From the NCBI GenBank assembly GCA_038231135.1, contig JBBRLX010000035.1, forward strand, positions 1 through 45,716: 45,716 nt of DNA, given 5' to 3'. Positions 3,221 to 24,302 of the stretch are shown in pieces. The position numbers and the translations under genes were made by a program. Under the pieces are notes generated by a model. That model did not search any database. It was not told the origin of the DNA and worked only from the letters and a program-made list of their open reading frames with translations. This DNA comes from Candidatus Eiseniibacteriota bacterium. GTDB taxonomy: Bacteria; Eisenbacteria; RBG-16-71-46. The first letter of the stretch is position 1; every line of letters begins with the position of its first letter.

Positions 3221-4222
3221 TCACGCCAGCCTGAGCAGCGCGTCGACCATGCGGTTCGAGAAGCCCCACTCGTTGTCGTACCACGACAGCACCTTGATCA
3301 GCGAGCCTTCCATCGTCATGGTCGACAGCGAATCGAACACGCTGCTGTGCGGGTTGCCCACCACGTCCATCGATACGATCGGGTCCTCGCAATACTCGAG
3401 GATGCCACGCAGCGGGCCCTGGGCCGCGGCCTGGATCGCGCCGTTCACCGCCGCCTTGTCGGCCGGGCGCTTGAGCTTCGCCACCAGGTCGACGAGCGAG
3501 CCGTCCATGACCGGCACGCGCACCGAGATGCCGTCGAGCTTGCCCTTCATCTCGGGCATCACCTCGCCGATCGCCTTCGCGGCACCGGTCGAGGTCGGAA
3601 TCATGCTGACCCCCGCCGCCCGCGCGCGCCGGAGGTCCTTGTGCGGCAGGTCCAGCAGATGCTGGTCGTTGGTGTAGGCGTGGATCGTGGTCATGTAGCC
3701 GTGCTCGATGCCGAACGTGTCGTTCAGCACCTTCACCACCGGAGCCAGGCAGTTCGTCGTGCACGAGCCGACGCTGACGACCGTGTGCGAATCCTGGAGC
3801 AGGTGATCGTTGACGCCGATCACGAACGTCAGGTCCGCGCCCTTGGCGGGCGCCGACACCAGCACCTTGCGGGCGCCGGCGGTAATGTGGGCGGCGGCCG
3901 CCGAGCGCTCGGTGAAGCGGCCGGTGGCTTCGATCACGACATCGACGCCGAGCGCCTTCCACGGCAGCTTCGACGGGTCCTTTTCCGCCAGCACCTTGAT
4001 CTCGTCGCCCCCCACCACGAGGTTGCCGCTCACATGGGGCTTGCTGGCGCAGTCCTGCCAGATGCCGTGGACGCTGTCGTAGCGCAGCAGGTGCTGCAGC
4101 GTCGCGGCATCGGTGAGATCGTTGACGGCCACGAACTCGATCCCGGCCTGGCGCTGCCGGGCGGCGCGCACCACGAGCCGTCCGATGCGGCCAAATCCGT
4201 TGATCGCAACCTTGAGGGCCAT
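3221..4222 (-). CDS. gap: Type I glyceraldehyde-3-phosphate dehydrogenase
   Basis: INGFGRIGR, SCTTNCL, SWYDNEWG. AAGGAG RBS. Confidence 0.98.
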   Translation of the reverse strand: MALKVAINGFGRIGRLVVRAARQRQAGIEFVAVNDLTDAATLQHLLRYDSVHGIWQDCASKPHVSGNLVVGGDEIKVLAEKDPSKLPWKALGVDVVIEATGRFTERSAAAAHITAGARKVLVSAPAKGADLTFVIGVNDHLLQDSHTVVSVGSCTTNCLAPVVKVLNDTFGIEHGYMTTIHAYTNDQHLLDLPHKDLRRARAAGVSMIPTSTGAAKAIGEVMPEMKGKLDGISVRVPVMDGSLVDLVAKLKRPADKAAVNGAIQAAAQGPLRGILEYCEDPIVSMDVVGNPHSSVFDSLSTMTMEGSLIKVLSWYDNEWGFSNRMVDALLRLA

Positions 4223-4322
4223 GGGAACTCTCCTTGTTCGGGGATCTGGCGGACACGGACACCGCGGGCGGGCTGAACGGGGTGCCGTGATTCGAGTGCG
4301 TGCGAGGAGCCAAAACCGTCCG

Positions 4323-4352
4323 ACTATGACCCACGGGATTCCGCAGGGTCAA
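4323..4352 (-). promoter_or_regulatory. Candidate sigma70 promoter for gap-pgk-tpiA
   Basis: TTGACC-18 bp-CATAGT about 100 bp upstream of gap. Confidence 0.45.
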
Positions 4353-4502
4353 CTCGCAGGGACGTGGGGCCGCGTTGCGGCTGCGTCGAGATTGCATCGC
4401 GAAGGCGCGTCGCAGGTGCTGCGGGGGTGCAACGCCGGGCGCATACCACGCTGTCACGGCCGCACGGGCACCGGCGGCGCCCCAGGGAACCCGGCGCGGC
4501 CG

Positions 4503-5981
4503 CTACTCGGTGGAGTAGCGCAGCGTGTATTCCCCGAGGCCCTGCTCGTCGACGAACAGGAACACCAGGCGCTTGCGGTGCGCGCGCTGGTCGTTGGGGT
4601 CGGCGTCGACGGGCGGCGCGATGTCGCCTTCGTAGATCCACACTTCGAACGGGCGCATGTCGCCGACCAGCCCCTTCTTCTCGACGTCGCCGACCGGCCG
4701 GTCCTCGTTCTGCTGGATATCCGCCAGCGCCTGGGTCAGCGTGTTGTCGCCCGATGGGATCACCTGTTTCAGGATCTCGCTCGGCTCGCCATACCGGATG
4801 AACGTGCGGCCCATGTCGGTGAGCATGCCGGGCGTGAGCTTGAGGATTCCATAGGTGTGATTCGCGATGGCCACGCGGCTGCGGAACGTCTCCAGCGCCT
4901 CGTTGAGCGCGGTGCCGGGCGTGGGGTCGCGCCGGCGCCAGAATTCGTCGAGCACCTGCTCCTGCTCGCCGGGTTGCATGCGGAAGAACGCGTCTTCGTC
5001 GTCGGGCTGCAGCAGCAGGTGCACGGCGTCCTCGACGTCGCGCGGATTGCGGAACCACGAGTCCGACTCCCAGGCGATGCTGAACCGCGCGGTGCGCACC
5101 GCGGGCTGGGGGTCGCCGTCACGGCCGGCGCGCACTTCGAGCTGATAGCCGCCGGCACGTTCGTGGACGAGATCGAACGTGACCTCGGCGTCCAGCGGCC
5201 CCGGGGTGGACTCGGTGCTGTCGCGCGACGCCACCACCTGACCCGCGGAATCGAGCACGCGCGCGGTCCAGTGCCACGGCCGCGTGTCGCCGGAGTCGCG
5301 CGCGGAGAACCAGGCGTGAAGATCGTTCGCGTGCAGGCCGTACAGCCGCTCGGGATTGGGCACCACCTCCCGGCCGCCGTGGCGGAACGATCCCGAGCGC
5401 GCGCCCTCGCCGGGCCATACGAACTCGAGGTCCGACAGCTCGGGGCCGTGCTTCGGCACCGTGATCGGGAACTCGCCCTCGACGTGGCCGCTCTCGACCA
5501 CCTTGCGTCCGGTGTAGATCAGGCCGCGCTTGCGGGATCGCTGGTCCTCGAGCCGCACCCCCAGCTTCTGCGGGCCCGGGTGCGCCGGGTACCGGAGCAT
5601 GACGACGTGGCCGAAATCGCGCGCCGAATCCGCCGGGGCGATCTCGAATTCGTGCGTCTGTTCCACGGTACGGCCGGAATAGCCGCTCCGCAGCCGTGTG
5701 ATCAGGCGCAACCGCCCGGTCGAGAGTGAATCCACGGTGAGCGCCGCGAGCGTCGCGGGCGGGATGCGCACGTACACCTCGAGCGCCCGGCCCGCGCTGT
5801 CGGGGACCATCGCAGCGTCGACGGTGAACCCAACGCGGCCGCCGACCCGCCACGGCAACGGCCCGGGACCCTCGTCGGGGTGGGCGGCGAGCGCCGGCAG
5901 GGCAGAGCCGACGAGCGCCAGCAGCCCCAGGCCCGCAAACAGGCGACGCGCTCCCCTGAGGGAGCGCGTCGCCAGGACCAT
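4503..5981 (-). CDS. GWxTD domain-containing secreted/periplasmic protein
   Basis: N-terminal signal peptide, then FWRRRDPTPGT-x-LNE...RVAIAN...GMLTDMGRTFIRYGEP...EVWIY...FLFVDEQGLGEY, matching the GWxTD domain pattern. Start placed at ATG 5981; the upstream part of the ORF track overlaps porV. Confidence 0.85.
   Translation of the reverse strand: MVLATRSLRGARRLFAGLGLLALVGSALPALAAHPDEGPGPLPWRVGGRVGFTVDAAMVPDSAGRALEVYVRIPPATLAALTVDSLSTGRLRLITRLRSGYSGRTVEQTHEFEIAPADSARDFGHVVMLRYPAHPGPQKLGVRLEDQRSRKRGLIYTGRKVVESGHVEGEFPITVPKHGPELSDLEFVWPGEGARSGSFRHGGREVVPNPERLYGLHANDLHAWFSARDSGDTRPWHWTARVLDSAGQVVASRDSTESTPGPLDAEVTFDLVHERAGGYQLEVRAGRDGDPQPAVRTARFSIAWESDSWFRNPRDVEDAVHLLLQPDDEDAFFRMQPGEQEQVLDEFWRRRDPTPGTALNEALETFRSRVAIANHTYGILKLTPGMLTDMGRTFIRYGEPSEILKQVIPSGDNTLTQALADIQQNEDRPVGDVEKKGLVGDMRPFEVWIYEGDIAPPVDADPNDQRAHRKRLVFLFVDEQGLGEYTLRYSTE
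5942..5973 (-). terminator. Perfect 14-bp-stem hairpin (terminator/attenuator-like)
   Basis: ggcgacgcgctccc-ctga-gggagcgcgtcgcc, followed by TGTTT on the minus strand. Confidence 0.55.
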
Positions 5982-6010
5982 CGTTGCCTGTAGCGGTGCC
6001 GTGACCGGCC

Positions 6011-6964
6011 TCAGAACAGGAATTTGAGCGAGATGCGGTGCGCGGCGCCCAGATCCTTCATGTCGGTGTAGGCATAGTCGAGATCCGCCATGCCGGCCAC
6101 GGACACGGGAAAGTGGAAACCGACACCCCCGGCGAGCCCTTCGGCGTCGTAATTGATGTTGTAGCCGCCGCGCAGGAACAGGTAGCGGTGGAACGAGTAC
6201 TCCCCGCCCACGTTCATGCGCTCGGAGTTGTCGGGCGGATGCGAGAACTCGAACGAACCGATCAGCTTCTGGTTGGCGTTCTGAATCAGGTTCACCGAGG
6301 TCCCGACGCGGAAGATCGACGGGATCCGCGCCTCGCGGTCGATGAACTTGACCTGCGAGCCGATGTTCGAGATCGCCATGCCGATCTTCATTCCCAGCGT
6401 GCCGACGTCGTACAGCGTCCCGATGTCGAACGCGAACGTCTGCTGGGACAGGTCGGCGAGCCCCTCGTGAATCAGGTTGCCCGTCACGCCGGCGCTGAAC
6501 TTGTCCGTGAACGACCGCGCGTAGGTGATGCCCGCGGTCATCATGCCCGCGTCGAACGTGTTCCCGGTACCGACGTTCGGATCGGGCTGGTACGCCGTGG
6601 TCTCCACCATCGGAGCCATCGACAGCGAACGCGCGTGAATGCCGAACGCGCCCGGGATGCGCTTGATATGGAACACGTAGCCGACCTGGTCGAACGACAG
6701 GTCCGCCGGCCAGTTGGCGTGGTTGATCGACAGTTCGGACTTGTCGGGATCGATGCGGGCGATGCCGGCGGCGTTCCAGAACAGCGACGACGCGTCGTCG
6801 GCCACGCCGACGAACGCTCCACCCATGGCTTCGGCCCGGGCGCCGACGCCAATCTTGAGGAACTGTCCGTCGAAGGTGCCCACCTTCTCGAAGATATTGG
6901 CCGCGAGCGACACCCCGGGCAGCAGCAGCGCCGCGAGTGCCAGCGCCCAAGCGGTTCTTTTCAC
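6011..6964 (-). CDS. PorV/PorQ-family (UPF0164-like) outer-membrane beta-barrel
   Basis: Signal peptide; QFLKIGVGARAEAMGGAFVGVADDASSLFWNAAG; LFLRGGY; DYAY...LG..HRISL..F C-terminus; AAGGAGG RBS. Confidence 0.9.
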   Translation of the reverse strand: MKRTAWALALAALLLPGVSLAANIFEKVGTFDGQFLKIGVGARAEAMGGAFVGVADDASSLFWNAAGIARIDPDKSELSINHANWPADLSFDQVGYVFHIKRIPGAFGIHARSLSMAPMVETTAYQPDPNVGTGNTFDAGMMTAGITYARSFTDKFSAGVTGNLIHEGLADLSQQTFAFDIGTLYDVGTLGMKIGMAISNIGSQVKFIDREARIPSIFRVGTSVNLIQNANQKLIGSFEFSHPPDNSERMNVGGEYSFHRYLFLRGGYNINYDAEGLAGGVGFHFPVSVAGMADLDYAYTDMKDLGAAHRISLKFLF

Positions 6965-6989
6965 TCTTGATCCCTCCTTCGAACCCGCG

Positions 6990-9900
6990 CTAACGGATCA
7001 CCACGAACCGACCGCGCTGGGTGCCTTCCTTCGATTCGACCGTGAACACGTAGATGCCGCTCACGACGTCCTGTCCGTTGCGGGAAATCAGATTCCACCG
7101 CGCCTGGCCATCGTTCGGATTGTCCTGCTGCCGGTTGTATCCCGGAAGCTGGCTGCCGTTGGGCTGGATGACCACCGGACGCACGGATTCGTTGACGGAG
7201 TCCGTGGACTTGATCACCGCCACCAGATCGCCCGACACGGTGTAGATTCGGATCGTCCACTGACTCGGCGGCAGACCCAGGAAGTCGATGTGCGTTCCCG
7301 TCGGGTCGGACGCGTTCGGCGTCAGATCCCACGACGACGGCCGCAGTGCGATGTTCGAGTAGCCGCGGTAGGGATTGGGCACCACCCACACGCCCTTGCC
7401 CTTCTTCGTACCCACCTGCGGCACCACGCCTTCGGCTTCGACGGCCGAGCGCCTGCCCCCCAGTTCGGTCGTACGGTTCAGGCTGGTCGTGGAATCGAAT
7501 GCGGTCACGGAATAGAAGTACATGAACCCGTTCTTCACCTCGTGGTCGACATACTTGTATTCGCCGATGGCGAACCGTTCCCGGGTCTCGCGATTGCTCG
7601 GAGTGTCGCACGGGTTGCGATGCACGATGCAGCCGTCGACGGCGGAGCAGTCACCCAGGCTGTCCTTGATGCAACCCAGCGTCGTATCCGGATGGAGGAT
7701 CTCGCCGCTCTGGCGGTCCCACAGGTCGCCGCGCTGGAGGCAGATCGGCACGGTCGCCGGACCACGAACATGCGTCACCGGATCGAGGTAGTTCGGGAAG
7801 AACACCTTGGGACACACGGTGTCCGGAACGGCCAGTGTCGAGTCGATGTACTTGTTGTTCGGGATCAACTGGTTGTGCTGATCGCGGTAATAGAACTGCC
7901 GGAACTCTCCGACCAGCGTCCAGTCCGCTTCGCTCGGGCCGGCGGATCCGACAGGCCGCTTCCAGTCCGCCACCTTCCAGATCCGGTACCCGCGGAAGTC
8001 GAACCACTGGGACTTGGGATCTGCCGTGACTTCGGACAGATTGTCCCAGGCGAGCGTCACCGTGTTGTCGCCCGCCGGCGCGATGTTCCGATCGGGATTC
8101 GCGCTGTAGTTGTAACGCGACGCCACGTTCAAATTCGGATTCGGCGGCGGCGCCTCGGCATTCCACGTCTTGTGGAACAACCCGCCGACCCGCGGATTCG
8201 ACGCACCGAGATTGGAGTCCCATACGCCGGTGCAATAGCTGCAATCGAAGTCGAACCACGTGGGCTCGCGATCCGTCACCTCGCGCGTGCGGCCGAGCTG
8301 GACGTCGCGGCAGTCGGCGAGGAACACCGGCGGCTCGCCGGGCTTGAGCTGGCGCGGGGTCTCGCGGCCATGGTAGTCCGGGGTGCGGAACCCTTCCCGA
8401 CGCTCGTTCACGCCCTCGTAGGCCAGCTGCACGTTGAACGCGTTCAGCAGCGCCGGGTATTCGTTGAACAGCTCGTTGGCCCGTTCGTTCTTGAGGACCG
8501 CCGGACCGTCCCGATACGCCCCGTACTTGGCGGGCCACTGCAGCATTTCCTGGTAGGTGCCCTTCTGGACCGCGAACGCGACCGTCGCGGTCACACTCTG
8601 ACCGTCGGCAACATTGAGGAACGGACCGATCGAACTCCAGGTGATGTAGTCGCCCTTCTGGTCCCCCGGCAGCTTGTTGATGAACCCATCGTCGCCGATG
8701 TTCTCCTTGCTCGACATGAACTCGTAACGCTGCTGGTCGATGACCGGGTTGCCGCCCTGCACGTACGGCGTGCCGCCCGTGAACGAACGGAAGGCCCGGA
8801 ATCCGACGCGCGCCGGGGCCGTCTCGCCGGTCGGATCGGTGGTGTGATTGACGAGCAGGAACGAACCCACGCCCGGGGTTCGGCCATTGTCGCCGTTGTC
8901 GTCGATCACGGAGAAGCCGTTGATCCGCAGCGTGTCCACGGGACACAGCGCCGAATCCTTGGGAAACGCGTTGTTGAGCTGGGAGTCATGAGGCTGCTGC
9001 CGGCGTTCCGGATCGACCAGCTGACCCGGCGACGAGCCGACCTGGATCAGGTACTCGCCCTGGGGGAACGTCGGGACGTCGAAGTCGTCGGCGAAGAAGT
9101 TCGAGATGTCGATGGGACCCGAGTCGATGTCCACGAGCCACCCGACGTACATGCTGTCGAGCGTGTGGCCGGAGCGGTTGAAGATCTGGTACTCGATCAC
9201 ATCGAAGTCCTGGAAGCCTTCGATCGAATAGGCCCAGGCCTTCTCGCGGCATTCGAGACCGAGCGGGACGTGCTTCTCGTTGAACACCGAGTTCACCGCC
9301 TGGATCGTGTTGTCCCACATCACCAGCGAATACATCTCCTGACCGAGCGCGCCGTAGTCCTCGTCGATCAGCCCATCGCCGTCGTTGTCACGACCGTCGA
9401 GGAAGTCCTCGTCGATCTTGGGGCACGGCGGATTGTCGCAGCCGAACGGGTTCGTGTTGTCGAAGTCGCCGTCGTCGTTGACGTACCGGGCACCGTTGAC
9501 GATGCCGTCGTAGGCCCGGTAGATCTTGTCCTGGGGCTCCAGCGTCTCGGGCCGCCATTCGAGCAGGTAGCTCACCCGGCGGATCCCCGCGGGATCGGTG
9601 GCGCCCGGGTTCACGGCGCCCACCGCGAGCCGGATCGAACTCAGGTATTCGATCCCCGAGGCGCCGGGCCACTGGCCGCTCGGATCCGTCGACAGCTGCG
9701 TGAACAGGTTTCCGCAGTGCCCCCAGTTCGTCACCTTCATGTGGACGTTGCCGACCCTGAGCACTGCGCCCGGACCGAACACATCCGGCAGATCCGCCGG
9801 CTGCACGCGTCCGTTGCCGCCGGTCGGATGGAAGTACTCCGGCAGCGCCGCCTTGAGCTTGGCCAGGTCGTAGCCATCGGGATCGACCTTGCCGGGGAAC

Positions 9901-9992
9901 ACCTGCGCCCGCGCTGCGATCGGCGCCAGCAGCGCTGCACACGCGAACAGCGCGGCCAGGAACCCACGAATGTCGTATCGGTTAGGCTTCAT
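6990..9992 (-). CDS. Large secreted hypothetical protein (~1000 aa) with acidic Ca-binding-like loops, Fn3-like region and T9SS-like C-terminal domain
   Basis: Signal peptide (…APIAARAQ); DEDFLDGRDNDGDGLIDED; AGDNTVTLAWD…DFRGYRIWK…YFYSVTAFD (Fn3-like); CTD VVPNPY…TIRIYTVSGDLV…WNL…VVSGIYVFTVE…GRFVVIR. Confidence 0.85.
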   Translation of the reverse strand: MKPNRYDIRGFLAALFACAALLAPIAARAQVFPGKVDPDGYDLAKLKAALPEYFHPTGGNGRVQPADLPDVFGPGAVLRVGNVHMKVTNWGHCGNLFTQLSTDPSGQWPGASGIEYLSSIRLAVGAVNPGATDPAGIRRVSYLLEWRPETLEPQDKIYRAYDGIVNGARYVNDDGDFDNTNPFGCDNPPCPKIDEDFLDGRDNDGDGLIDEDYGALGQEMYSLVMWDNTIQAVNSVFNEKHVPLGLECREKAWAYSIEGFQDFDVIEYQIFNRSGHTLDSMYVGWLVDIDSGPIDISNFFADDFDVPTFPQGEYLIQVGSSPGQLVDPERRQQPHDSQLNNAFPKDSALCPVDTLRINGFSVIDDNGDNGRTPGVGSFLLVNHTTDPTGETAPARVGFRAFRSFTGGTPYVQGGNPVIDQQRYEFMSSKENIGDDGFINKLPGDQKGDYITWSSIGPFLNVADGQSVTATVAFAVQKGTYQEMLQWPAKYGAYRDGPAVLKNERANELFNEYPALLNAFNVQLAYEGVNERREGFRTPDYHGRETPRQLKPGEPPVFLADCRDVQLGRTREVTDREPTWFDFDCSYCTGVWDSNLGASNPRVGGLFHKTWNAEAPPPNPNLNVASRYNYSANPDRNIAPAGDNTVTLAWDNLSEVTADPKSQWFDFRGYRIWKVADWKRPVGSAGPSEADWTLVGEFRQFYYRDQHNQLIPNNKYIDSTLAVPDTVCPKVFFPNYLDPVTHVRGPATVPICLQRGDLWDRQSGEILHPDTTLGCIKDSLGDCSAVDGCIVHRNPCDTPSNRETRERFAIGEYKYVDHEVKNGFMYFYSVTAFDSTTSLNRTTELGGRRSAVEAEGVVPQVGTKKGKGVWVVPNPYRGYSNIALRPSSWDLTPNASDPTGTHIDFLGLPPSQWTIRIYTVSGDLVAVIKSTDSVNESVRPVVIQPNGSQLPGYNRQQDNPNDGQARWNLISRNGQDVVSGIYVFTVESKEGTQRGRFVVIR

Positions 9993-10010
9993 GTCTCCCG
10001 TTCCCACCGG

Positions 10011-12806
10011 TCAGAAAGTGACGTTCATGCCGAGGCGCACGTTCCGGCCCTCGGAGAATACCCGGGGGTCGCGCACCGGAACCCAATCCGGAATGTTGTC
10101 GCCGTTGACGTCCTGCAGATACGCCCCGCCGGCCCGGCCCGTCTGGGTGTAGTAGATCGTGTAATCGTCGCCTGCGAAATTCACGTTGGGGTTGGGGAAG
10201 CCACCCACACTCAGGTTGTCGATGTTCACCACGTTGAGCACGTTGCGGGCGTCGAAGAACAACGTCACGTTCTGGCCCCAGATCTTGTAGAACTTGTCGC
10301 CGTCGATCGTCAGGTCCGAGTTCGACGGCAACCGGCGCGAGTTCGTGAGCTTGGGATCCGGCCGCCGGTCGTTCGCGTATGCCGGCGTGAACGGGAAGCC
10401 CGAACCATAGACCCACAGCATCCGGAACCCCCACTTGCCGGGATCGCGCACGGTCGACGAGAAGCTCAGCGTGTGCCGCTGATCCCAGTCCAGCGCCTGC
10501 TCGGAGATCGGCAGGTACAGCCGGCCACCGTTGAAGAACTGCAGCGCCTGGTTGGGGTCGGAGGCGACGCCGGTCGCGAGCGAGTAGGTGTAGTTGACCT
10601 CGGCCGAGAACTTGTGGCTGAAGCTCTTGATGATGCTGGCCTCGAAGCCGCGCGAGCTCGCGTAGTCGCCGTTGTAGAACACGTTCACCAGGTTGCCGAA
10701 CTCGTCCCGCTCCTGCCGCGTGGTGATCAGCCCGTAAATGTCCTTGAAGAACACCGAGAACTGACCGGACACGTCGCGCGAGAACAGGTGCTGCATGCCG
10801 GCCTGGTACGCGATGTTCGTCTCGGGCTCGAGGTCCGGGTTGCCGCGCGTGACGACGCTGGTGCCGGCATCGCGATTCTCGAAGATGTAGCGGCGCGCCG
10901 GGGTCTGGTAGGTCCAGCCGTAGTGGAAGCTCAGCACGTCCTTGTCGGAGATCGGGTAGGCGATGCCGAGTCGCGGGCTGAACTGCATCTTGTCGCGCTT
11001 GCCGCTGCGCAGGTCGGCGTTCGAGATCTGGTCGCCGGGCGTGAAGAAGTCGTAGCGCACGCCGGCGTTGAGCACCAGACCCTCGTACTCCCAGCGGTCC
11101 TGGACGTATGCGGCGCCCTCGGGATTGAAGTTCGTGTAGTCCGAGCGGTTACCGCCGGGCAGGCCGTTGTTCTCGACGTTCGGGAACGCCAGCGTGAGAT
11201 TCTGCACCCGGTTGTACTTGGCCTCGATGCCGGTCTTGAGCGTGTGCTGCTTGTAGCGGCGCGTCGAGAAGTCGGTCTTGAGCGAATACGTGGCCGCGTC
11301 CCGGTTGAAGTACTGCGGGAAGTCGCCGTGCGTCGCGTAGTACGGATTGTCCTCGGTGCCGGTGCCGAGGTTGCCGCTCCAGTAGAACGGGCTCTGAATC
11401 GCGTACTCCCACGGCTCCTTCTGGCCCACCGAGTTGAGCGTGTTGAACCGGAGACTGGCGAGCCGGGTGGTGAGCACCGACTTGTCGGAGATCTGGTTGG
11501 TCCACACGGCGGTGTACTGGCGGTAGCGATCGTCCAGCGTGGGCACGTGGTCCGGCAGGTTCACGGGCAGATACGTGCTGTCCACCTGCAGCGCCGACCA
11601 GGTCCCGTAGTGGGGCGAATAGCGGTCCGGCTGGCCGGCCGAACGCAGGGTGTCGAGCGCCACCTTCACGAACCCCTGCCGGCTCCACATGTGGTTGTAC
11701 GGCGTGTTGACCGTGTGGTTGTTGATGATCTCGAGCGTCACCTTGTTCTTGGGGTTCGCCCGGTACGCCAGCTTGAGATTCGCGTTCACCTGGTTCGACT
11801 GGCGATTGCCGAGCGTGATGAAGTCGAGGAACGTGCGGCGCGGCTTCGTGAGCGTCGACTTGAGGTAGGTGTCCGAGAACGTCCCCTCGTAGGTCGCGAA
11901 GTAGGTCAGGCTCTTGATGGGCGTCGGTCCGCCGAAGCCGAACGTGAACCGGTCGAAGTCGTTGAACGTCTTGGTGGGGTCGCCGAACCGGTCGGTGTCC
12001 CACCGCACCTCGCCGCCCAGGCGGTCCGTGCCCTCCTTGGTGCTGACGTTCACGACGCCGGACAGCGCGTTGCCGTATTCGGCGTCGAACCCGCCCGACA
12101 GCACTTCGGCACCGGCGATCGCAAGGTTCGCCACGTTCGCGTTGCGACCAAACAGCGGATCCGAAGCCTCGGTGCCGTCGATCTGCAGCTTCACCTCGCC
12201 GCCGCGGCCGCCTCGGAAGTGGAGCTCGTCGCCGCGCGCCACGACGCCCGCCTTGGTGGCGATCGCCTGGCTCAGGTTGTCGACCGGCAGCTCCTTGAGC
12301 CGCTCGGACGTGATCGCCTGCTTGGTCGTCGACGACTTGGTGTCGATGACCTTCGCGCCATGGACCTCGATGACGTCGAGTTCCTTGACCGACTTGGCGA
12401 CGCCGACGGAGAACGTGAGCGCCGAGTTCTGGCCGGCGTTGACCTGGACCGTCTGGGTCATCTTGTCATGCCCGATCGCCATCACCTGCACCTGCTGGGT
12501 GCCCACGGGCACGCCATGGATCACGAAGTTGCCGTTGTCGTCGGTCGAGGTGCCCTGCTTGGTTCCGAGCACGACGACATTGGCGTAGGGCAACGGGTCC
12601 TTGCCGTTATCGAGCACCCGTCCCGAAATGGTGCCCGACAGCGCGGGAACGCCAGGTGCGGCCACCGTGGGCGTGGCAGGTCGTGCGGGAGCAGCTGCTT
12701 TCGTGGGCGCCGCCGGCCTTTGCTGTCCGAACCCAGGAGCAGCGAAGGCGACGCCGAGGACCGCCACCGTCAATGCGGGTAGGAAGCGCCTGATCGTCTG
12801 GTGCAT
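10011..12806 (-). CDS. TonB-dependent receptor with N-terminal carboxypeptidase-regulatory-like domain
   Basis: Signal peptide; GTISGRV…PLPYANVVV…GTSTD..GNFVI; plug motifs HFRGGR and SGGFDAEYGNALSGVVN; NAGVRYD, SPRLG, GNPDLEPE; terminal Phe. Start ATG 12806 with GAGGT RBS. Confidence 0.93.
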   Translation of the reverse strand: MHQTIRRFLPALTVAVLGVAFAAPGFGQQRPAAPTKAAAPARPATPTVAAPGVPALSGTISGRVLDNGKDPLPYANVVVLGTKQGTSTDDNGNFVIHGVPVGTQQVQVMAIGHDKMTQTVQVNAGQNSALTFSVGVAKSVKELDVIEVHGAKVIDTKSSTTKQAITSERLKELPVDNLSQAIATKAGVVARGDELHFRGGRGGEVKLQIDGTEASDPLFGRNANVANLAIAGAEVLSGGFDAEYGNALSGVVNVSTKEGTDRLGGEVRWDTDRFGDPTKTFNDFDRFTFGFGGPTPIKSLTYFATYEGTFSDTYLKSTLTKPRRTFLDFITLGNRQSNQVNANLKLAYRANPKNKVTLEIINNHTVNTPYNHMWSRQGFVKVALDTLRSAGQPDRYSPHYGTWSALQVDSTYLPVNLPDHVPTLDDRYRQYTAVWTNQISDKSVLTTRLASLRFNTLNSVGQKEPWEYAIQSPFYWSGNLGTGTEDNPYYATHGDFPQYFNRDAATYSLKTDFSTRRYKQHTLKTGIEAKYNRVQNLTLAFPNVENNGLPGGNRSDYTNFNPEGAAYVQDRWEYEGLVLNAGVRYDFFTPGDQISNADLRSGKRDKMQFSPRLGIAYPISDKDVLSFHYGWTYQTPARRYIFENRDAGTSVVTRGNPDLEPETNIAYQAGMQHLFSRDVSGQFSVFFKDIYGLITTRQERDEFGNLVNVFYNGDYASSRGFEASIIKSFSHKFSAEVNYTYSLATGVASDPNQALQFFNGGRLYLPISEQALDWDQRHTLSFSSTVRDPGKWGFRMLWVYGSGFPFTPAYANDRRPDPKLTNSRRLPSNSDLTIDGDKFYKIWGQNVTLFFDARNVLNVVNIDNLSVGGFPNPNVNFAGDDYTIYYTQTGRAGGAYLQDVNGDNIPDWVPVRDPRVFSEGRNVRLGMNVTF

Positions 12807-13085
12807 AGAGTGAGACCTCGCTCGAAGAACCATGGCTGCATGCGGATCCGGGTAAAAATGCCTGTGGTGTGGTACCAAGTCAACGAGATTCCCGTCCAAG
12901 TGCTTCGCGGCAAGCAAGTTAGTTCGCGAAGTTCTCGAGAGGTGTCGGTCCGTCACGATCGCCTCACGCACTTCACGCGATAGGGATCGGGAGCAGCGAC
13001 CCGGAGCGGGTCGGCAGTTGGCGTCGCAGGGGGGGTTCCGCAAGACAGCACTCGAACAGCGGTGCCGGACGCCCAGTCCATGGCA

Positions 13086-13114
13086 ACTATCGTCAGGAGT
13101 CCTCCGACTGTCAA
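13086..13114 (-). promoter_or_regulatory. Candidate sigma70 promoter for the TonB-receptor operon
   Basis: TTGACA-17 bp-GATAGT. A second candidate TTGACT-17-CATTTT lies at 12855-12883. Confidence 0.55.
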
Positions 13115-13143
13115 GGGGTTTTTCGGTCCATGTCCATCGCGGA

Positions 13144-14781
13144 TCAGAAGACCCACCGCAGTCGGCCCGCCAACCGCTGGCGGCTGGTACGGGTGTTGGA
13201 CGGATCCTGGAAGTCGGAACGCGTCCATTCATAAGCGTATCCGGCATCGAACGACCAGCGCACGTCCCGGGGATGGAGGCCGAAACCGGCCGTGCCGGAG
13301 TTCGTGGTGGTCTCGTTGAACCGGGTGGCGTCGTCCTGGTCCTGCCAGTGATAGAGGTAGCCCATCCGGACCGTGAGCATGGGGACCAGCGGCAACTCGA
13401 CTCCGGACCGCACGTCCCAGCCGGTGGCCTTGGGGCCGATCCCGGTCAGTTCCTGGTCGTGGTGACTCACGTAGTAGTGGCCCTCCACCCCCAGCACCGT
13501 CCCGTGTAGGCCCGACTTCCAGGCGATCCCGCCCCCCGCCTCGACCGAACGGTCCTCGACGACGTTGTGAACGATGCTGTCCGGCACCGCGAGCGTGTCC
13601 GCGCCGTCGCGATTGAACACCACGTCGATGAAGTGGTTGAAGCTGTCCTCTTCGCCGATCGGAGGCGGAGTGGTCTCCGCCTTGCGATAAGCGGTCGCGA
13701 GCCCGGCCCCGATCTCGAACCGGCGTCCCGCCCAGCGCACGCGCGCCTTGAGGTTCGAGCCCTCCTCCACGCGGTGCAGCAACCGGCCGCGTCCCTCGAG
13801 CGGATCGGTCGCCGTGCCTGCCGAGGTGGTGAACACGTAATCCTGGTCGGACTTCGCGCGCCAGCCGCGCGCGTCCGCGCCCCACTCGAGACCCCCGGTG
13901 CGGCCAATGATCGAGGCCTGTCCGACGTGATACGGCCGCTGTTCGTGGATTTCGGACGCGTTCCGTAACCCATCGTTCGTTCCCAGGATGTTGTGACTCA
14001 CGGCATCGTAGCCGACCGCCACGTGGATGTCGGGCGTGACGCGCATCCCGAGATGGGCGCCGAGCCCGAACGAGTGGACGATGGTGTGCGTCGGCGCGAA
14101 GAAATCGGGCGGGTCGATCTGGGTGCCATCGCGATCGAGGAACTGGCCGGCGCTGTTCGCGACGAACAGGCGATAGTGATCGATGTTGGACGGCGTCGCG
14201 ACCAGGCCCCGCAGCGCGTAGGTGAACCGGCGGGTCTTCCCGATCGGCAGATGGCCGGCGAGAATCGGCATGATGTTGGGTCGGCCGAGCATCGAGCGGC
14301 GCTCGATCGCCTCGTTGTACGGCAGGTCGGTGCGCGCGGTGCTCCAGTCCCCGACCGCACCGTACGTCGAATTCTGCGTGCGCCGCCAGCCTTCGTAGTA
14401 GGTGCGGAAGTCGCGCGCCGCATAGGTCTGACGCTGGTATGCCGGGTCGGCCTGGAACCGATCCGTGACCGTCGAGCCGGAGCCCGTCACGGGGCCGAAC
14501 TCGAGCGTCGAGCTGCTATCGGCATCGAGCACGCCGATCGGATTCTGGCCCAGGTCCCACATGTTGATCCGGTTGTGGGCATCGTCGAGTACGTAACTGA
14601 GGCGTCCCATGCCGAGCAGCCGGGGGCTGCGCGCGATCGGATCGGGGGTGCCGTCGAGATACGGGCTGGGATCGTCGAACACCGAGTACACCGATTGAGC
14701 CATGGCCGGTGCGATGGGCGCGGCGATGCCGGCGGCGACTGCCAGCAGCGCGCTCCATCGAACCCCGCGCGAAGGGCTCAT
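13144..14781 (-). CDS. Hypothetical outer-membrane beta-barrel protein, FadL/PorV-like N-terminus
   Basis: Signal peptide, alternating amphipathic strands, C-terminal …LRWVF (BAM beta-signal), AAAGGAG RBS. Confidence 0.75.
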   Translation of the reverse strand: MSPSRGVRWSALLAVAAGIAAPIAPAMAQSVYSVFDDPSPYLDGTPDPIARSPRLLGMGRLSYVLDDAHNRINMWDLGQNPIGVLDADSSSTLEFGPVTGSGSTVTDRFQADPAYQRQTYAARDFRTYYEGWRRTQNSTYGAVGDWSTARTDLPYNEAIERRSMLGRPNIMPILAGHLPIGKTRRFTYALRGLVATPSNIDHYRLFVANSAGQFLDRDGTQIDPPDFFAPTHTIVHSFGLGAHLGMRVTPDIHVAVGYDAVSHNILGTNDGLRNASEIHEQRPYHVGQASIIGRTGGLEWGADARGWRAKSDQDYVFTTSAGTATDPLEGRGRLLHRVEEGSNLKARVRWAGRRFEIGAGLATAYRKAETTPPPIGEEDSFNHFIDVVFNRDGADTLAVPDSIVHNVVEDRSVEAGGGIAWKSGLHGTVLGVEGHYYVSHHDQELTGIGPKATGWDVRSGVELPLVPMLTVRMGYLYHWQDQDDATRFNETTTNSGTAGFGLHPRDVRWSFDAGYAYEWTRSDFQDPSNTRTSRQRLAGRLRWVF

Positions 14782-14892: not shown

Positions 14893-14921
14893 ATACTAGG
14901 AACGGCCCCCGGGGGTGTCAA
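14893..14921 (-). promoter_or_regulatory. Candidate sigma70 promoter for the beta-barrel gene, overlapping the mpg 3' end
   Basis: TTGACA-17 bp-TAGTAT, with palindromic CCCCCGGGGG in the spacer. Confidence 0.6.
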
Positions 14922-21920: not shown

Positions 21921-24302
21921 TCAGCGCACGACGCTGATCCGTCGCACTTGAACCTTGGCTGCCTGCCGGAGGCGAAGAAAGTACACGCCGATCGGGAGGT
22001 GAAGCCCGCGGCCCATTTCCACCCTGTGAACCCCGCCGCCCAGGGAATCGAGGATGCGTGCGTCCACCACCCTCCCCGAGAGATCCACCAGGTCGAGCTG
22101 CGCCGTGGCCGTCACGGGCAGGGAGAATTCCACGGTGAAGGTCGAGGGCGCGGGGTTGGGCTGAATGCGTGTCAGCTCGAAGCGCGGCGCAACGGCGGCG
22201 GGCAGCACCGGCCGGGACGCCCCGTCCTCCACGCGGTAGGTCGGCTTCGAGCCGGCCCCCCAGGTCAGGAACTGGGTATCGCCGAAGAACATCCGCTGAC
22301 TGTCGCGATAGCCGCCGAAGACCGCCAGCCGGTCCCCGCCGGCATCGTAGACCGCCGTCATCAGGTCACGTTCTCCGGGGCTCAACCCATCCGGACGCAG
22401 TTTGTTCCAGCGCGCATGGGCGCCGAGTCTCAGCTCCCAGACGTCTCCGAGAAATCCCGAGTTCAGATTGAAGCCGCCATAGAGCACCAGCCGCTGCCCC
22501 GCGGAGTCGTACACGGTCGTGTGCAGGTAGCGCGGCGTGGGATTCGGTCCCCCGGTCGCGAGCCGCGACCAGGCCGGGGTGCCGTTCGACAGGTCGAGGG
22601 CGAACGTCTCGTCCCGGGGTCCGGCGGCATTGCCGCCAAACACGACGGCGCGATCGCCCAGCGGGTCGTACGTCATCGACATGCCCCATCGTGGAGACGG
22701 AGGCGTCCCGGCCGCGGCGATCGAGTGCCACTGCAGCGCATTCGGTCCACTCAGTGGCAGCTCCCACAGGTCGGCCAGGCTGGCGAAATTCAACCCGCCG
22801 AACACCAGCATTCGATCGCGCAACGGGTCGTAGATCGCGCCGTGCGACAGCCTGCCGTCCGGACGGACTCCTGTCGTCACGAGTTCGGCCCAGGCCGGGC
22901 CGGGTCCCGTGGTCAGCTGCCAGGTGTCGTTGGCGTACTGCGACAGCGTCTGGTCGTAGCCGCCGAACAGGATCATCCGGTGACGGAGCGGATCCCAGAT
23001 CGAGGTGCTGCCGTGTCGTGGATGAGGCGCCACCGGCGTATGCAACCTCGACCATACCGGGTCACCCGAGAGTGCGAATGCCCAGGTCTGGTCGTCGTCG
23101 AACAACGTGAGCGTCGTCCCCGAAAACACGATCATCTGCCGGTGATCCGGATCGATCGCCGCCGAGTATTCACGCCGCGGTGAAGGCGCGGCGGCATCGG
23201 GCGGGGAGGGGAGCGTGTACTCGGTCCATCCCGTGGGTGCCGAGAAACTCAGGAACGCCGTCTGTTGCAGGTAGCTTCCATCGTATCCGCCAAACGTCGC
23301 CAGGCGGTCGAGGATGGGATCGTAGACCGACTGATGGCCAAAGCGCGCGGTCACGACGGACGTTCCCGGATCGACGAGCTGCCACGCCGGGCTGCCGGTG
23401 AGATTCAGCGCCCAAGCATCCGAGTAGTACACGAACGGCCCGCTGATTCCCCCGCTCGTCCCGCCGAAGATCACCATCCGATTGCGGGCACCGTCGTAGA
23501 CGGGGCTGAATTCCCGGCGCGCGGACGGCGCCGCCGCGGCGGGGATGACGCTCCACGCGGGACTCGATCCCAGGCTCAGCGCCCACGTATCGGAGAGGTA
23601 TGCGCCATTCCAGCCGCCGAAGATCACGAGCCGGTTCGACACCGGGTCGTAGATGCCCTGGGACAGGTCGCGCACCGGAGGTGCCGGACCCGCGGGCGAT
23701 AGCTGCGTCCACGCCGGTGCCGCTCCCAGCGACAGCGCCCAGACGTCGTTGCGGAACGCGAAACCGTCGTAGCCGCCGAACACGATCAGCCGATTCCCCG
23801 CGGCGTCGTAGACCGTCGAGTTGAACGCGCGGGCCGGGGGCGGGGTGCCGGTCGGCGACAGCGGGGTCCACACCGGCGATGCGCCGAGCGACAGGCTCCA
23901 GGCGTCGTTATGGAAATTACCGTCGTAACCGCCGAACACGATGAACCGGTCTCCGGCCACATCGTAGACCGCGCCGGCTCCGTGACGCGGCGCGGGTTTC
24001 ACGCCGGCCGGCTCGAGCTCGATCCAATGACCATGCGGACCGAGCGAAAGCGTCCACGCATCGTTGCGATAGGTGGGCGTGCCCCCGAAGATGATCATCT
24101 GGTTGCGATGCGAGTCGTATGCGGCGCCCATGGACAATCGCGCCGAAGGGATCGAGTCCCCTGGCGGCGCGGGCGGCGGTGCCGGGATCGAGCTCCATGT
24201 GCCATCGCGACCGTTGGAGGCGCCGGCGGACCCGATCGCGACCATCATCGCGAAAGCGAGAACCATGATTGACATCAGATTCGAGAGGGAGCGTGTGCCC
24301 AT
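21921..24302 (-). CDS. Secreted Kelch-repeat protein (12 repeats) with T9SS type A-like C-terminal sorting domain
   Basis: 12 copies of P..R……YD….R..hFGG…DxW; signal peptide; CTD IQPNP….TVEFSLP….LDLVDLSGRVV…L.IGVYFLRL….RISVVR; GGAGG RBS. Confidence 0.9.
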   Translation of the reverse strand: MGTRSLSNLMSIMVLAFAMMVAIGSAGASNGRDGTWSSIPAPPPAPPGDSIPSARLSMGAAYDSHRNQMIIFGGTPTYRNDAWTLSLGPHGHWIELEPAGVKPAPRHGAGAVYDVAGDRFIVFGGYDGNFHNDAWSLSLGASPVWTPLSPTGTPPPARAFNSTVYDAAGNRLIVFGGYDGFAFRNDVWALSLGAAPAWTQLSPAGPAPPVRDLSQGIYDPVSNRLVIFGGWNGAYLSDTWALSLGSSPAWSVIPAAAAPSARREFSPVYDGARNRMVIFGGTSGGISGPFVYYSDAWALNLTGSPAWQLVDPGTSVVTARFGHQSVYDPILDRLATFGGYDGSYLQQTAFLSFSAPTGWTEYTLPSPPDAAAPSPRREYSAAIDPDHRQMIVFSGTTLTLFDDDQTWAFALSGDPVWSRLHTPVAPHPRHGSTSIWDPLRHRMILFGGYDQTLSQYANDTWQLTTGPGPAWAELVTTGVRPDGRLSHGAIYDPLRDRMLVFGGLNFASLADLWELPLSGPNALQWHSIAAAGTPPSPRWGMSMTYDPLGDRAVVFGGNAAGPRDETFALDLSNGTPAWSRLATGGPNPTPRYLHTTVYDSAGQRLVLYGGFNLNSGFLGDVWELRLGAHARWNKLRPDGLSPGERDLMTAVYDAGGDRLAVFGGYRDSQRMFFGDTQFLTWGAGSKPTYRVEDGASRPVLPAAVAPRFELTRIQPNPAPSTFTVEFSLPVTATAQLDLVDLSGRVVDARILDSLGGGVHRVEMGRGLHLPIGVYFLRLRQAAKVQVRRISVVR

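Follow-up and report, generated by a model that had tools for sequence, protein, structure and literature searches.

Several described systems share features with the locus analyzed here. In SusC/SusD (RagA/RagB) of Bacteroidota, the gene for a TonB-dependent transporter with an N-terminal extension immediately precedes that for a large surface partner. In the PorZ-PorQ and PorU-PorV pairs of the Porphyromonas gingivalis attachment complex, a barrel of the PorV/PorQ family holds one protein bearing a type IX secretion system (T9SS) C-terminal domain (CTD) on the surface (accessible text of PMC12365241). Substrates whose CTD is of Type B are genetically linked to a dedicated PorP/SprF carrier, which orphan substrates share (accessible text of PMC12618676). 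Dedicated anchoring barrels thus have precedent. In Myxococcus xanthus, oar lies beside exbB and exbD genes, and its product secretes a 50.8-kDa protein (available parts of PMC11658791 and PMC6434023). Here, we have analyzed a stretch of 45,716 nucleotides from an uncultured, soil-type bacterium (contig JBBRLX010000035.1 of assembly GCA_038231135.1, Candidatus Eiseniibacteriota; hereafter, the window) that contains a cassette encoding a TonB-dependent receptor (TBDR), a large CTD-bearing protein (the cargo), a PorV/PorQ-family barrel and a GWxTD protein. The combination of a TBDR with a T9SS-type, barrel-tethered partner probably represents an alternative to the SusC/SusD design that has not been described before. 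Our best reading, held at even odds, is that the cassette core is a SusCD-like importer whose helper is exported by the T9SS and tethered to a barrel. No description of the cassette, nor of type IX secretion in Eisenbacteria, was found in the literature searched, subscription papers excluded, and the accessible part of 10.1101/2025.01.14.632903 describes a different sprA/TonB-C operon.

The cassette comprises five co-directional genes on the minus strand, whose starts are backed by a ribosome-binding site or the coding model (ribosome-binding sites, frame bias in third-position GC and the coding model guided the start choice). The first gene, which encodes another barrel, is separated from the TBDR gene by 337 bp, and the following gaps are only 18 bp (TBDR-cargo), 25 bp (cargo-PorV) and 29 bp (PorV-GWxTD). 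All five N-termini carry a Sec-type signal peptide, as judged by eye, and none of the five proteins has a lipobox. An earlier reading of the DNA (the sequence-only reading) had described such a run of signal-peptide genes, the last four about 20-30 bp apart, and had proposed that the TBDR partner is not SusD, but a non-lipoprotein of about 1000 aa with a CTD-like end. Both observations hold, and SusD (PF07980) was found neither in this genome nor in any of 61 genomes, in searches whose positive control matched.

The TBDR (10011..12806, minus strand; 931 aa) consists of a carboxypeptidase-regulatory-like N-terminal extension, a plug and a barrel, matching PF13620, PF07715 and PF00593, all over cut-off. 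It lies far below the cut-off of the SusC/RagA model TIGR04056 (55.7 bits against 368.25), and thus outside the SusC subfamily. The stretch before the plug (consensus EEIxV) is one that we take to be TonB-box-like. A close orthologue was detected in 79 of 81 genomes of the phylum, as a single match in 66 of those 79, in a comparison that scored no more than 11 candidates from each genome.

The cargo (6990..9992, minus strand; 1000 aa) is a non-lipoprotein of an unnamed family that comprises 3709 clusters (50%-identity representatives) at E<=1e-10. Its AlphaFold2 (AF2) model has a predicted local distance difference test score (pLDDT) of 83.6 and a predicted template modeling score of 0.80. The N-terminal part (8559..9776, minus strand) is a beta-supersandwich with an acidic DxDGD hairpin, assigned by fold match and by invariant Asp/Glu residues. 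Its best fold match is 1lf6, residues 28-314 (Z 18.6, root-mean-square deviation 3.0, 245 aligned residues), and the fold is shared with the N-terminal domains of GH15, GH94 and GH65 enzymes, including glucoamylase, and with galactose mutarotases. In such glycosidases, the N-terminal supersandwich domains are non-catalytic, and the cargo model has no catalytic barrel C-terminal to the supersandwich. A fibronectin type III-like domain with a variable Cys-rich insertion follows (7419..8081, minus strand; strands in the model and a weak Fn3 match, E 0.33). The cargo carries conserved cysteines. Twelve of the 120 listed homologues (P0030, P0037, P0055 and nine others) have an insertion of about 120 aa after residue 780, which resembles a circularly permuted cupredoxin with Cys/His/His; in three of the twelve, the Pfam matches are below cut-off.

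The cargo ends in a CTD (6990..7397, minus strand) of a distinct subclass (VVPNPY...IRIYTVSGDLV...WNLISRNGQ..SG.Y...GRFVVIR), whose score against TIGR04183 is slightly below the cut-off (21.9 bits, E 1.3e-4; cut-off 23). In the AF2 model it forms a C-terminal beta-sandwich of seven strands, which agrees with the CTD-like end postulated by the sequence-only reading and is the architecture given for T9SS CTDs (accessible text of PMC11285876). The cargo is not PorZ, since it reaches 17 of the required 260 bits against NF052228, over the CTD part only. Sequence searches for solved relatives found none for the cargo (best E 0.33), the GWxTD protein (0 matches) or the upstream barrel (best E 0.02).

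The third gene of the core (6011..6964, minus strand; 317 aa) encodes a barrel that scores over the cut-off of the PorV family model NF033709 (192.7 bits, cut-off 90), but below those of the PorV equivalog NF033710 (74.7 vs 250) and of PorQ NF033711 (77.1 vs 220). It does not belong to the PorP/SprF family (17.8 bits against 90.55 for TIGR03519), and PorV of Flavobacterium johnsoniae matches it at E 2.1e-12. When this barrel was co-folded with cargo residues 606-972, the score was 0.89, compared with 0.00 for the best of three controls. No less than 92% of the contacts were shared between runs, the partner pLDDT was at least 64, and the mark used is passed by 116 of 157 solved and 2 of 215 mismatched complexes. 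The contacts named all join CTD residues 839-972 to the N-terminal hatch and loops of the barrel. By this prediction, the cargo CTD docks into the cassette barrel as its anchor, as the sequence-only reading had anticipated. The CTD interface residues are also more conserved than the remainder (0.73 vs 0.49), although weakly so once inserts are removed. The promiscuous PorV of F. johnsoniae is contacted by a CTD face of low conservation (accessible text of PMC10994853), so a conserved face here would fit a dedicated pair, which is no more than suggestive.

The closest named homologues come from Ca. Eisenbacteria, and the gene order is conserved in two phyla. We surveyed 40 loci from 37 Eisenbacteria genomes, hand-picked from the best cargo matches with long contigs favored, and 20 loci fetched from a sister phylum (that of G151, a Ca. 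Krumholzibacteria record). The order TBDR-cargo-PorV, whose conservation the sequence-only reading had left to a survey, is kept in 33/40 and 15/20 loci, respectively. Where the contig leaves room, the Eisenbacteria triad is followed by GWxTD in 31/31 loci and by gap/pgk in 29/30, and is preceded by the upstream barrel in 30/31. In the sister phylum, GWxTD accompanies 14 of the 15 triads, and neither the upstream barrel nor the glycolysis genes were detected with any (0/15). There, exbB follows the cassette in 15/15 loci, and the complete set exbB-exbD-exbD-tonB in 14/15. These counts are descriptions rather than tests, because related genomes are not independent. Cargo-family matches, paralogues included, occur in 150 of 151 genomes of the phylum and in 50 of 51 of the sister phylum. 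Among the exceptions, the cargo gene of L106 is directly followed by gap, L089 has a TBDR-cargo pair without a PorV match, one of the six Eisenbacteria loci without the triad has a TBDR downstream, and one further locus of the 40 is cut.

The genome itself contains eight PorV-family genes, 14 TBDR barrel matches and nine TonB_C matches, and four cassettes combine a TBDR, a large CTD protein and a PorV-family gene (on contigs C35, C2, C3 and C8). All four TBDRs of this genome with the N-terminal extension of this subfamily adjoin a cargo and a PorV-family gene, and the similarity among the paralogous TBDRs is mirrored by that among the cargos. A profile of the cargo CTD finds seven proteins at 49-171 bits, the next scoring 20; these seven are the cargos of all four cassettes plus three that stand alone. 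A profile of the N-terminal domain recovers six of the seven, and all four cassette cargos have both the N-terminal domain and the CTD subclass (both profiles were built from orthologues of the window cargo). The mirrored similarities also suggested that two stand-alone TBDRs pair in trans with two stand-alone cargos; this was rejected, since they share no locus in 41 family genomes.

The C8 locus (G000:C8:79570-99708) encodes a LacI-type regulator (identified by reading the sequence), a CTD protein, a TBDR, a cargo with 2685 homologues at E<=1e-20, a PorV-family barrel, two PF10091 proteins, a GH94 enzyme and a sugar ABC transporter. PF10091 corresponds to GH144 glucanases, a family link by which the substrate is probably beta-1,2-glucan. 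C8 is a glycan utilization locus without SusD, in which the cassette stands where SusCD would be expected.

The sequence-only reading had also offered a self-contained module or a minimal secretion route. This part is not supported, because SprA and PorU are encoded elsewhere in the genome, both over cut-off. Locus L136 (G000:C30:27400-43865) contains PorU, a PorV-family barrel, an M6-peptidase CTD protein, two small barrels, an Omp85 protein and an 1127-aa protein with a weak SprA match. SprA was found in 79 of 81 Eisenbacteria and 31 of 31 sister-phylum genomes, and 45 of the 50 PorU-model matches in this genome cover only the CTD. The other components looked for gave a different result: GldM was found in 0/81 Eisenbacteria and 0/31 sister-phylum genomes, GldL in 0/41 genomes over cut-off (one weak match), and GldM, GldN and PorP not in this genome, where GldK was not searched; the controls of these searches were silent, so diverged motors could have escaped. 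As a separate observation, a hand count of 13 Eisenbacteria genomes with the TBDR gene and sprA on one contig places them at most 65 kb apart in eight, five of which belong to one family. The spacing is similar in the sister phylum, and this proximity may be plain long-range synteny.

Taken together, the conserved order of the triad, the four triads of this genome, the context of C8, the failure to find SusD, the Ton linkage, the co-fold and the fold match support the importer reading, and the interpretation given by the sequence-only reading is supported in part. All five proteins would enter via Sec, judging from their signal peptides and missing lipobox. The cargo would then cross the outer membrane via the SprA of the genome, not via the cassette, and by the predicted interface its CTD would dock in the mouth of the cognate barrel, where, by analogy with PorZ on PorQ, it may be retained uncleaved. 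The supersandwich could bind a ligand, which would probably be some glycan or another polymer of envelope scale, and pass it to the TBDR, which would be energized by TonB-ExbBD, whose genes adjoin the cassette in the sister phylum. The GWxTD protein would be a tightly linked accessory of the core copy, and one may speculate that it bridges the TBDR and the Ton motor. Unlike SusC/SusD, the partner is a non-lipoprotein without the SusD fold, predicted to be anchored via its CTD on a separate barrel, and there are no carbohydrate-active enzymes near the window copy. The cargo, which is neither PorZ nor PorU, is linked to a TBDR, and the genome has its PorU-PorV locus apart; and unlike the Type B systems, the carrier is of the PorV family and the CTD of a Type A-like subclass.

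Several results weigh against an importer. The cassette is almost universal and mostly single-copy, and it occupies a housekeeping position, between prfB-pgm-mpg on one side and (pfk)-gap-pgk-tpi-secG on the other. These are the main unexplained facts. They resemble core envelope machinery more than they do a nutrient locus, and argue for a substrate or role in the core of the envelope and against a diet-specific one. No glycosidase or other clue to a substrate was found among the 36 window open reading frames scanned, and a common fold does not by itself reveal a function. The cargo lacks both an upstream TBDR and a downstream PorV gene in 6/40 and 5/20 loci, and the stand-alone cargos and TBDRs of this genome are never adjacent in the 41 family genomes, nor do their orthologues strictly co-occur (30 vs 27 of the 41). 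Since solved PorV-CTD complexes exist, the co-fold may reflect likeness only, and once inserts are removed the enrichment of conserved residues at the interface is weak, both for the CTD (0.77 vs 0.68, p 0.065) and for the barrel (0.77 vs 0.72, p 0.10). Finally, release from SprA needs a GldLM-type motor in Flavobacterium (accessible text of PMC10994853), and with no GldL, GldM or GldN found, the SprA step is left here without a known energy source.

Stand-alone cargo paralogues are common and tandem cargos occur (L066, L141), which would suit a cargo that the barrel tethers but that works apart from the TBDR, as an adhesin, a surface-layer element or an enzyme scaffold, the genes being merely co-expressed. 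The cupredoxin-like insertion likewise suggests a modular display protein. We regard this alternative as unlikely, since the four extended TBDRs all adjoin a cargo and a PorV-family gene, TBDR-cargo pairs without PorV occur (L055 as well as L089), and the similarities of TBDRs and cargos mirror each other.

The failure to detect a motor allows another explanation, in which the core copy relays energy to a T9SS that has no motor: TonB-ExbBD, acting via the TBDR, the GWxTD protein and a permanently loaded barrel-cargo pair, would help to free loaded carriers from SprA, replacing GldLM/GldKN. The near-universal SprA beside the absent GldM and GldL matches, the many substrates in need of export that the CTD-only PorU matches imply, a TBDR as universal as SprA and the linked Ton operon of the sister phylum all point this way. 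Nevertheless, the motor controls were silent, it is nothing unusual for Ton genes to adjoin a TBDR, and a paralogous cassette lies in a sugar locus, and thus we hold this relay to be improbable. Were it real, the motor-less T9SS of Eisenbacteria and the sister phylum, powered by the cassette, would represent type IX secretion in its ancestral form, before gliding.

A TBDR that itself exports the cargo, as Oar exports PopC, with the barrel catching it, corresponds to the minimal secretion route of the sequence-only reading and seems slightly more doubtful still. The TBDR of the C3 cassette matches PF25183, no T9SS motor was found, and oar likewise stands beside exbB/exbD genes, as the cassette does in the sister phylum. 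However, the cargo is roughly double PopC in size and has conserved cysteines and a T9SS-type CTD, SprA is available in this genome, and stand-alone cargos exist without a TBDR. We know of no CTD or anchor barrel for PopC. Least probable of all is one fixed complex of all five proteins. The adjacency of the five genes in most Eisenbacteria loci favors it, but the promoter-like sites and, in some genomes, tldD/pmbA inserted after the upstream barrel speak against it, as do the 20 sister-phylum loci in which the barrel was undetected and the lack of GWxTD beside C2 and C8 and in L153.

The five-gene unit of the sequence-only reading needs one correction, which concerns its first barrel. The upstream barrel (13144..14781, minus strand) is a 545-aa outer-membrane beta-barrel ending in W-V-F, probably FadL/OmpP1-like and loosely associated. 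Library scans returned no family over cut-off, and its Atlas neighbors are mostly Toluene_X/FadL, which is only a lead. Its candidacy as a PorV paralogue was rejected (hhalign probability 18%). It is preceded by a sigma70-like promoter (14893..14921, minus strand; TTGACA-17-TAGTAT, 10/12 matches, by consensus only), and no terminator-like site was found after it or after the GWxTD gene. This barrel is likely a neighbor of the cassette and not a subunit.

The barrel-TBDR gap contains two promoter-like sites on the minus strand. P1 (13086..13114; TTGACA-17-GATAGT, a 10/12 sigma70 match in a region with three such sites where 1.1 are expected) has an equivalent in 20 of 21 gaps; a conserved GGGCG comes after it, together with a 5' hairpin. 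P2 (12855..12883), some 50 nt ahead of where the TBDR starts, was missed by a stricter scan, and a TTGAC..CAT site is present in 21 of 21 gaps. The 6-bp hairpin after P1 has 85.5% of cells paired and two-sided changes in four of six pairs, a level reached by 1 of 500 shuffles, although one row is miscut, pairing of the window copy is poor in that register, and relatedness among sequences can by itself be enough to outdo shuffles. The GGGCG and hairpin (window 13114-13050) also precede the stand-alone cargo genes of L045, L055 and L056 and the C3 cassette, and are possibly a phylum-specific leader or pause element. A riboswitch or other known RNA was rejected, as Rfam gave no match to E 1; no NusG match was found in this 93%-complete genome, which is uninformative for ops/RfaH-type antitermination at GGGCG.

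The GWxTD protein (4503..5981, minus strand; 492 aa) contains two Ig-like sandwiches, the GWxTD helical domain and a C-terminal alpha/beta part, and is probably periplasmic. Its motif is degenerate (GMLTD), yet it scores 70.8 bits against TIGR04514, over the cut-off of 28; it is below that of PF20094 (21.6, cut-off 26.9). Its model (pLDDT 85.5) shows the two Ig-like domains, for which the fold search gave generic matches only (Z up to 9.5), the GWxTD domain itself being unmatched. In sister-phylum loci L144-L151, the Ton genes are succeeded by a TolC-like gene and often by another GWxTD gene as well. In many relatives, pfkA lies between GWxTD and gap, a place where it is missing in this genome (window 4222-4503). 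Elsewhere, window 21921-24302 encodes a Kelch-propeller protein whose CTD is of the ordinary Type A-like kind. In one soil RNA run (n=1, 0.05 word share), contigs of relatives with 85-99% likeness cover parts of the genes, and operon structure and level are unreadable from them.

The importer reading raises the question of how the cargo is released by a T9SS that has SprA and PorU but in which GldLM is not detectable. If this reading is true, several uncultured FCB-related (Fibrobacteres, Chlorobi and Bacteroidetes) phyla would fit TonB transporters with surface helpers without lipoprotein flipping, by means of T9SS export and a private anchor barrel. It would also explain polymer uptake in lineages that lack SusD, and would provide the first context for GWxTD proteins.

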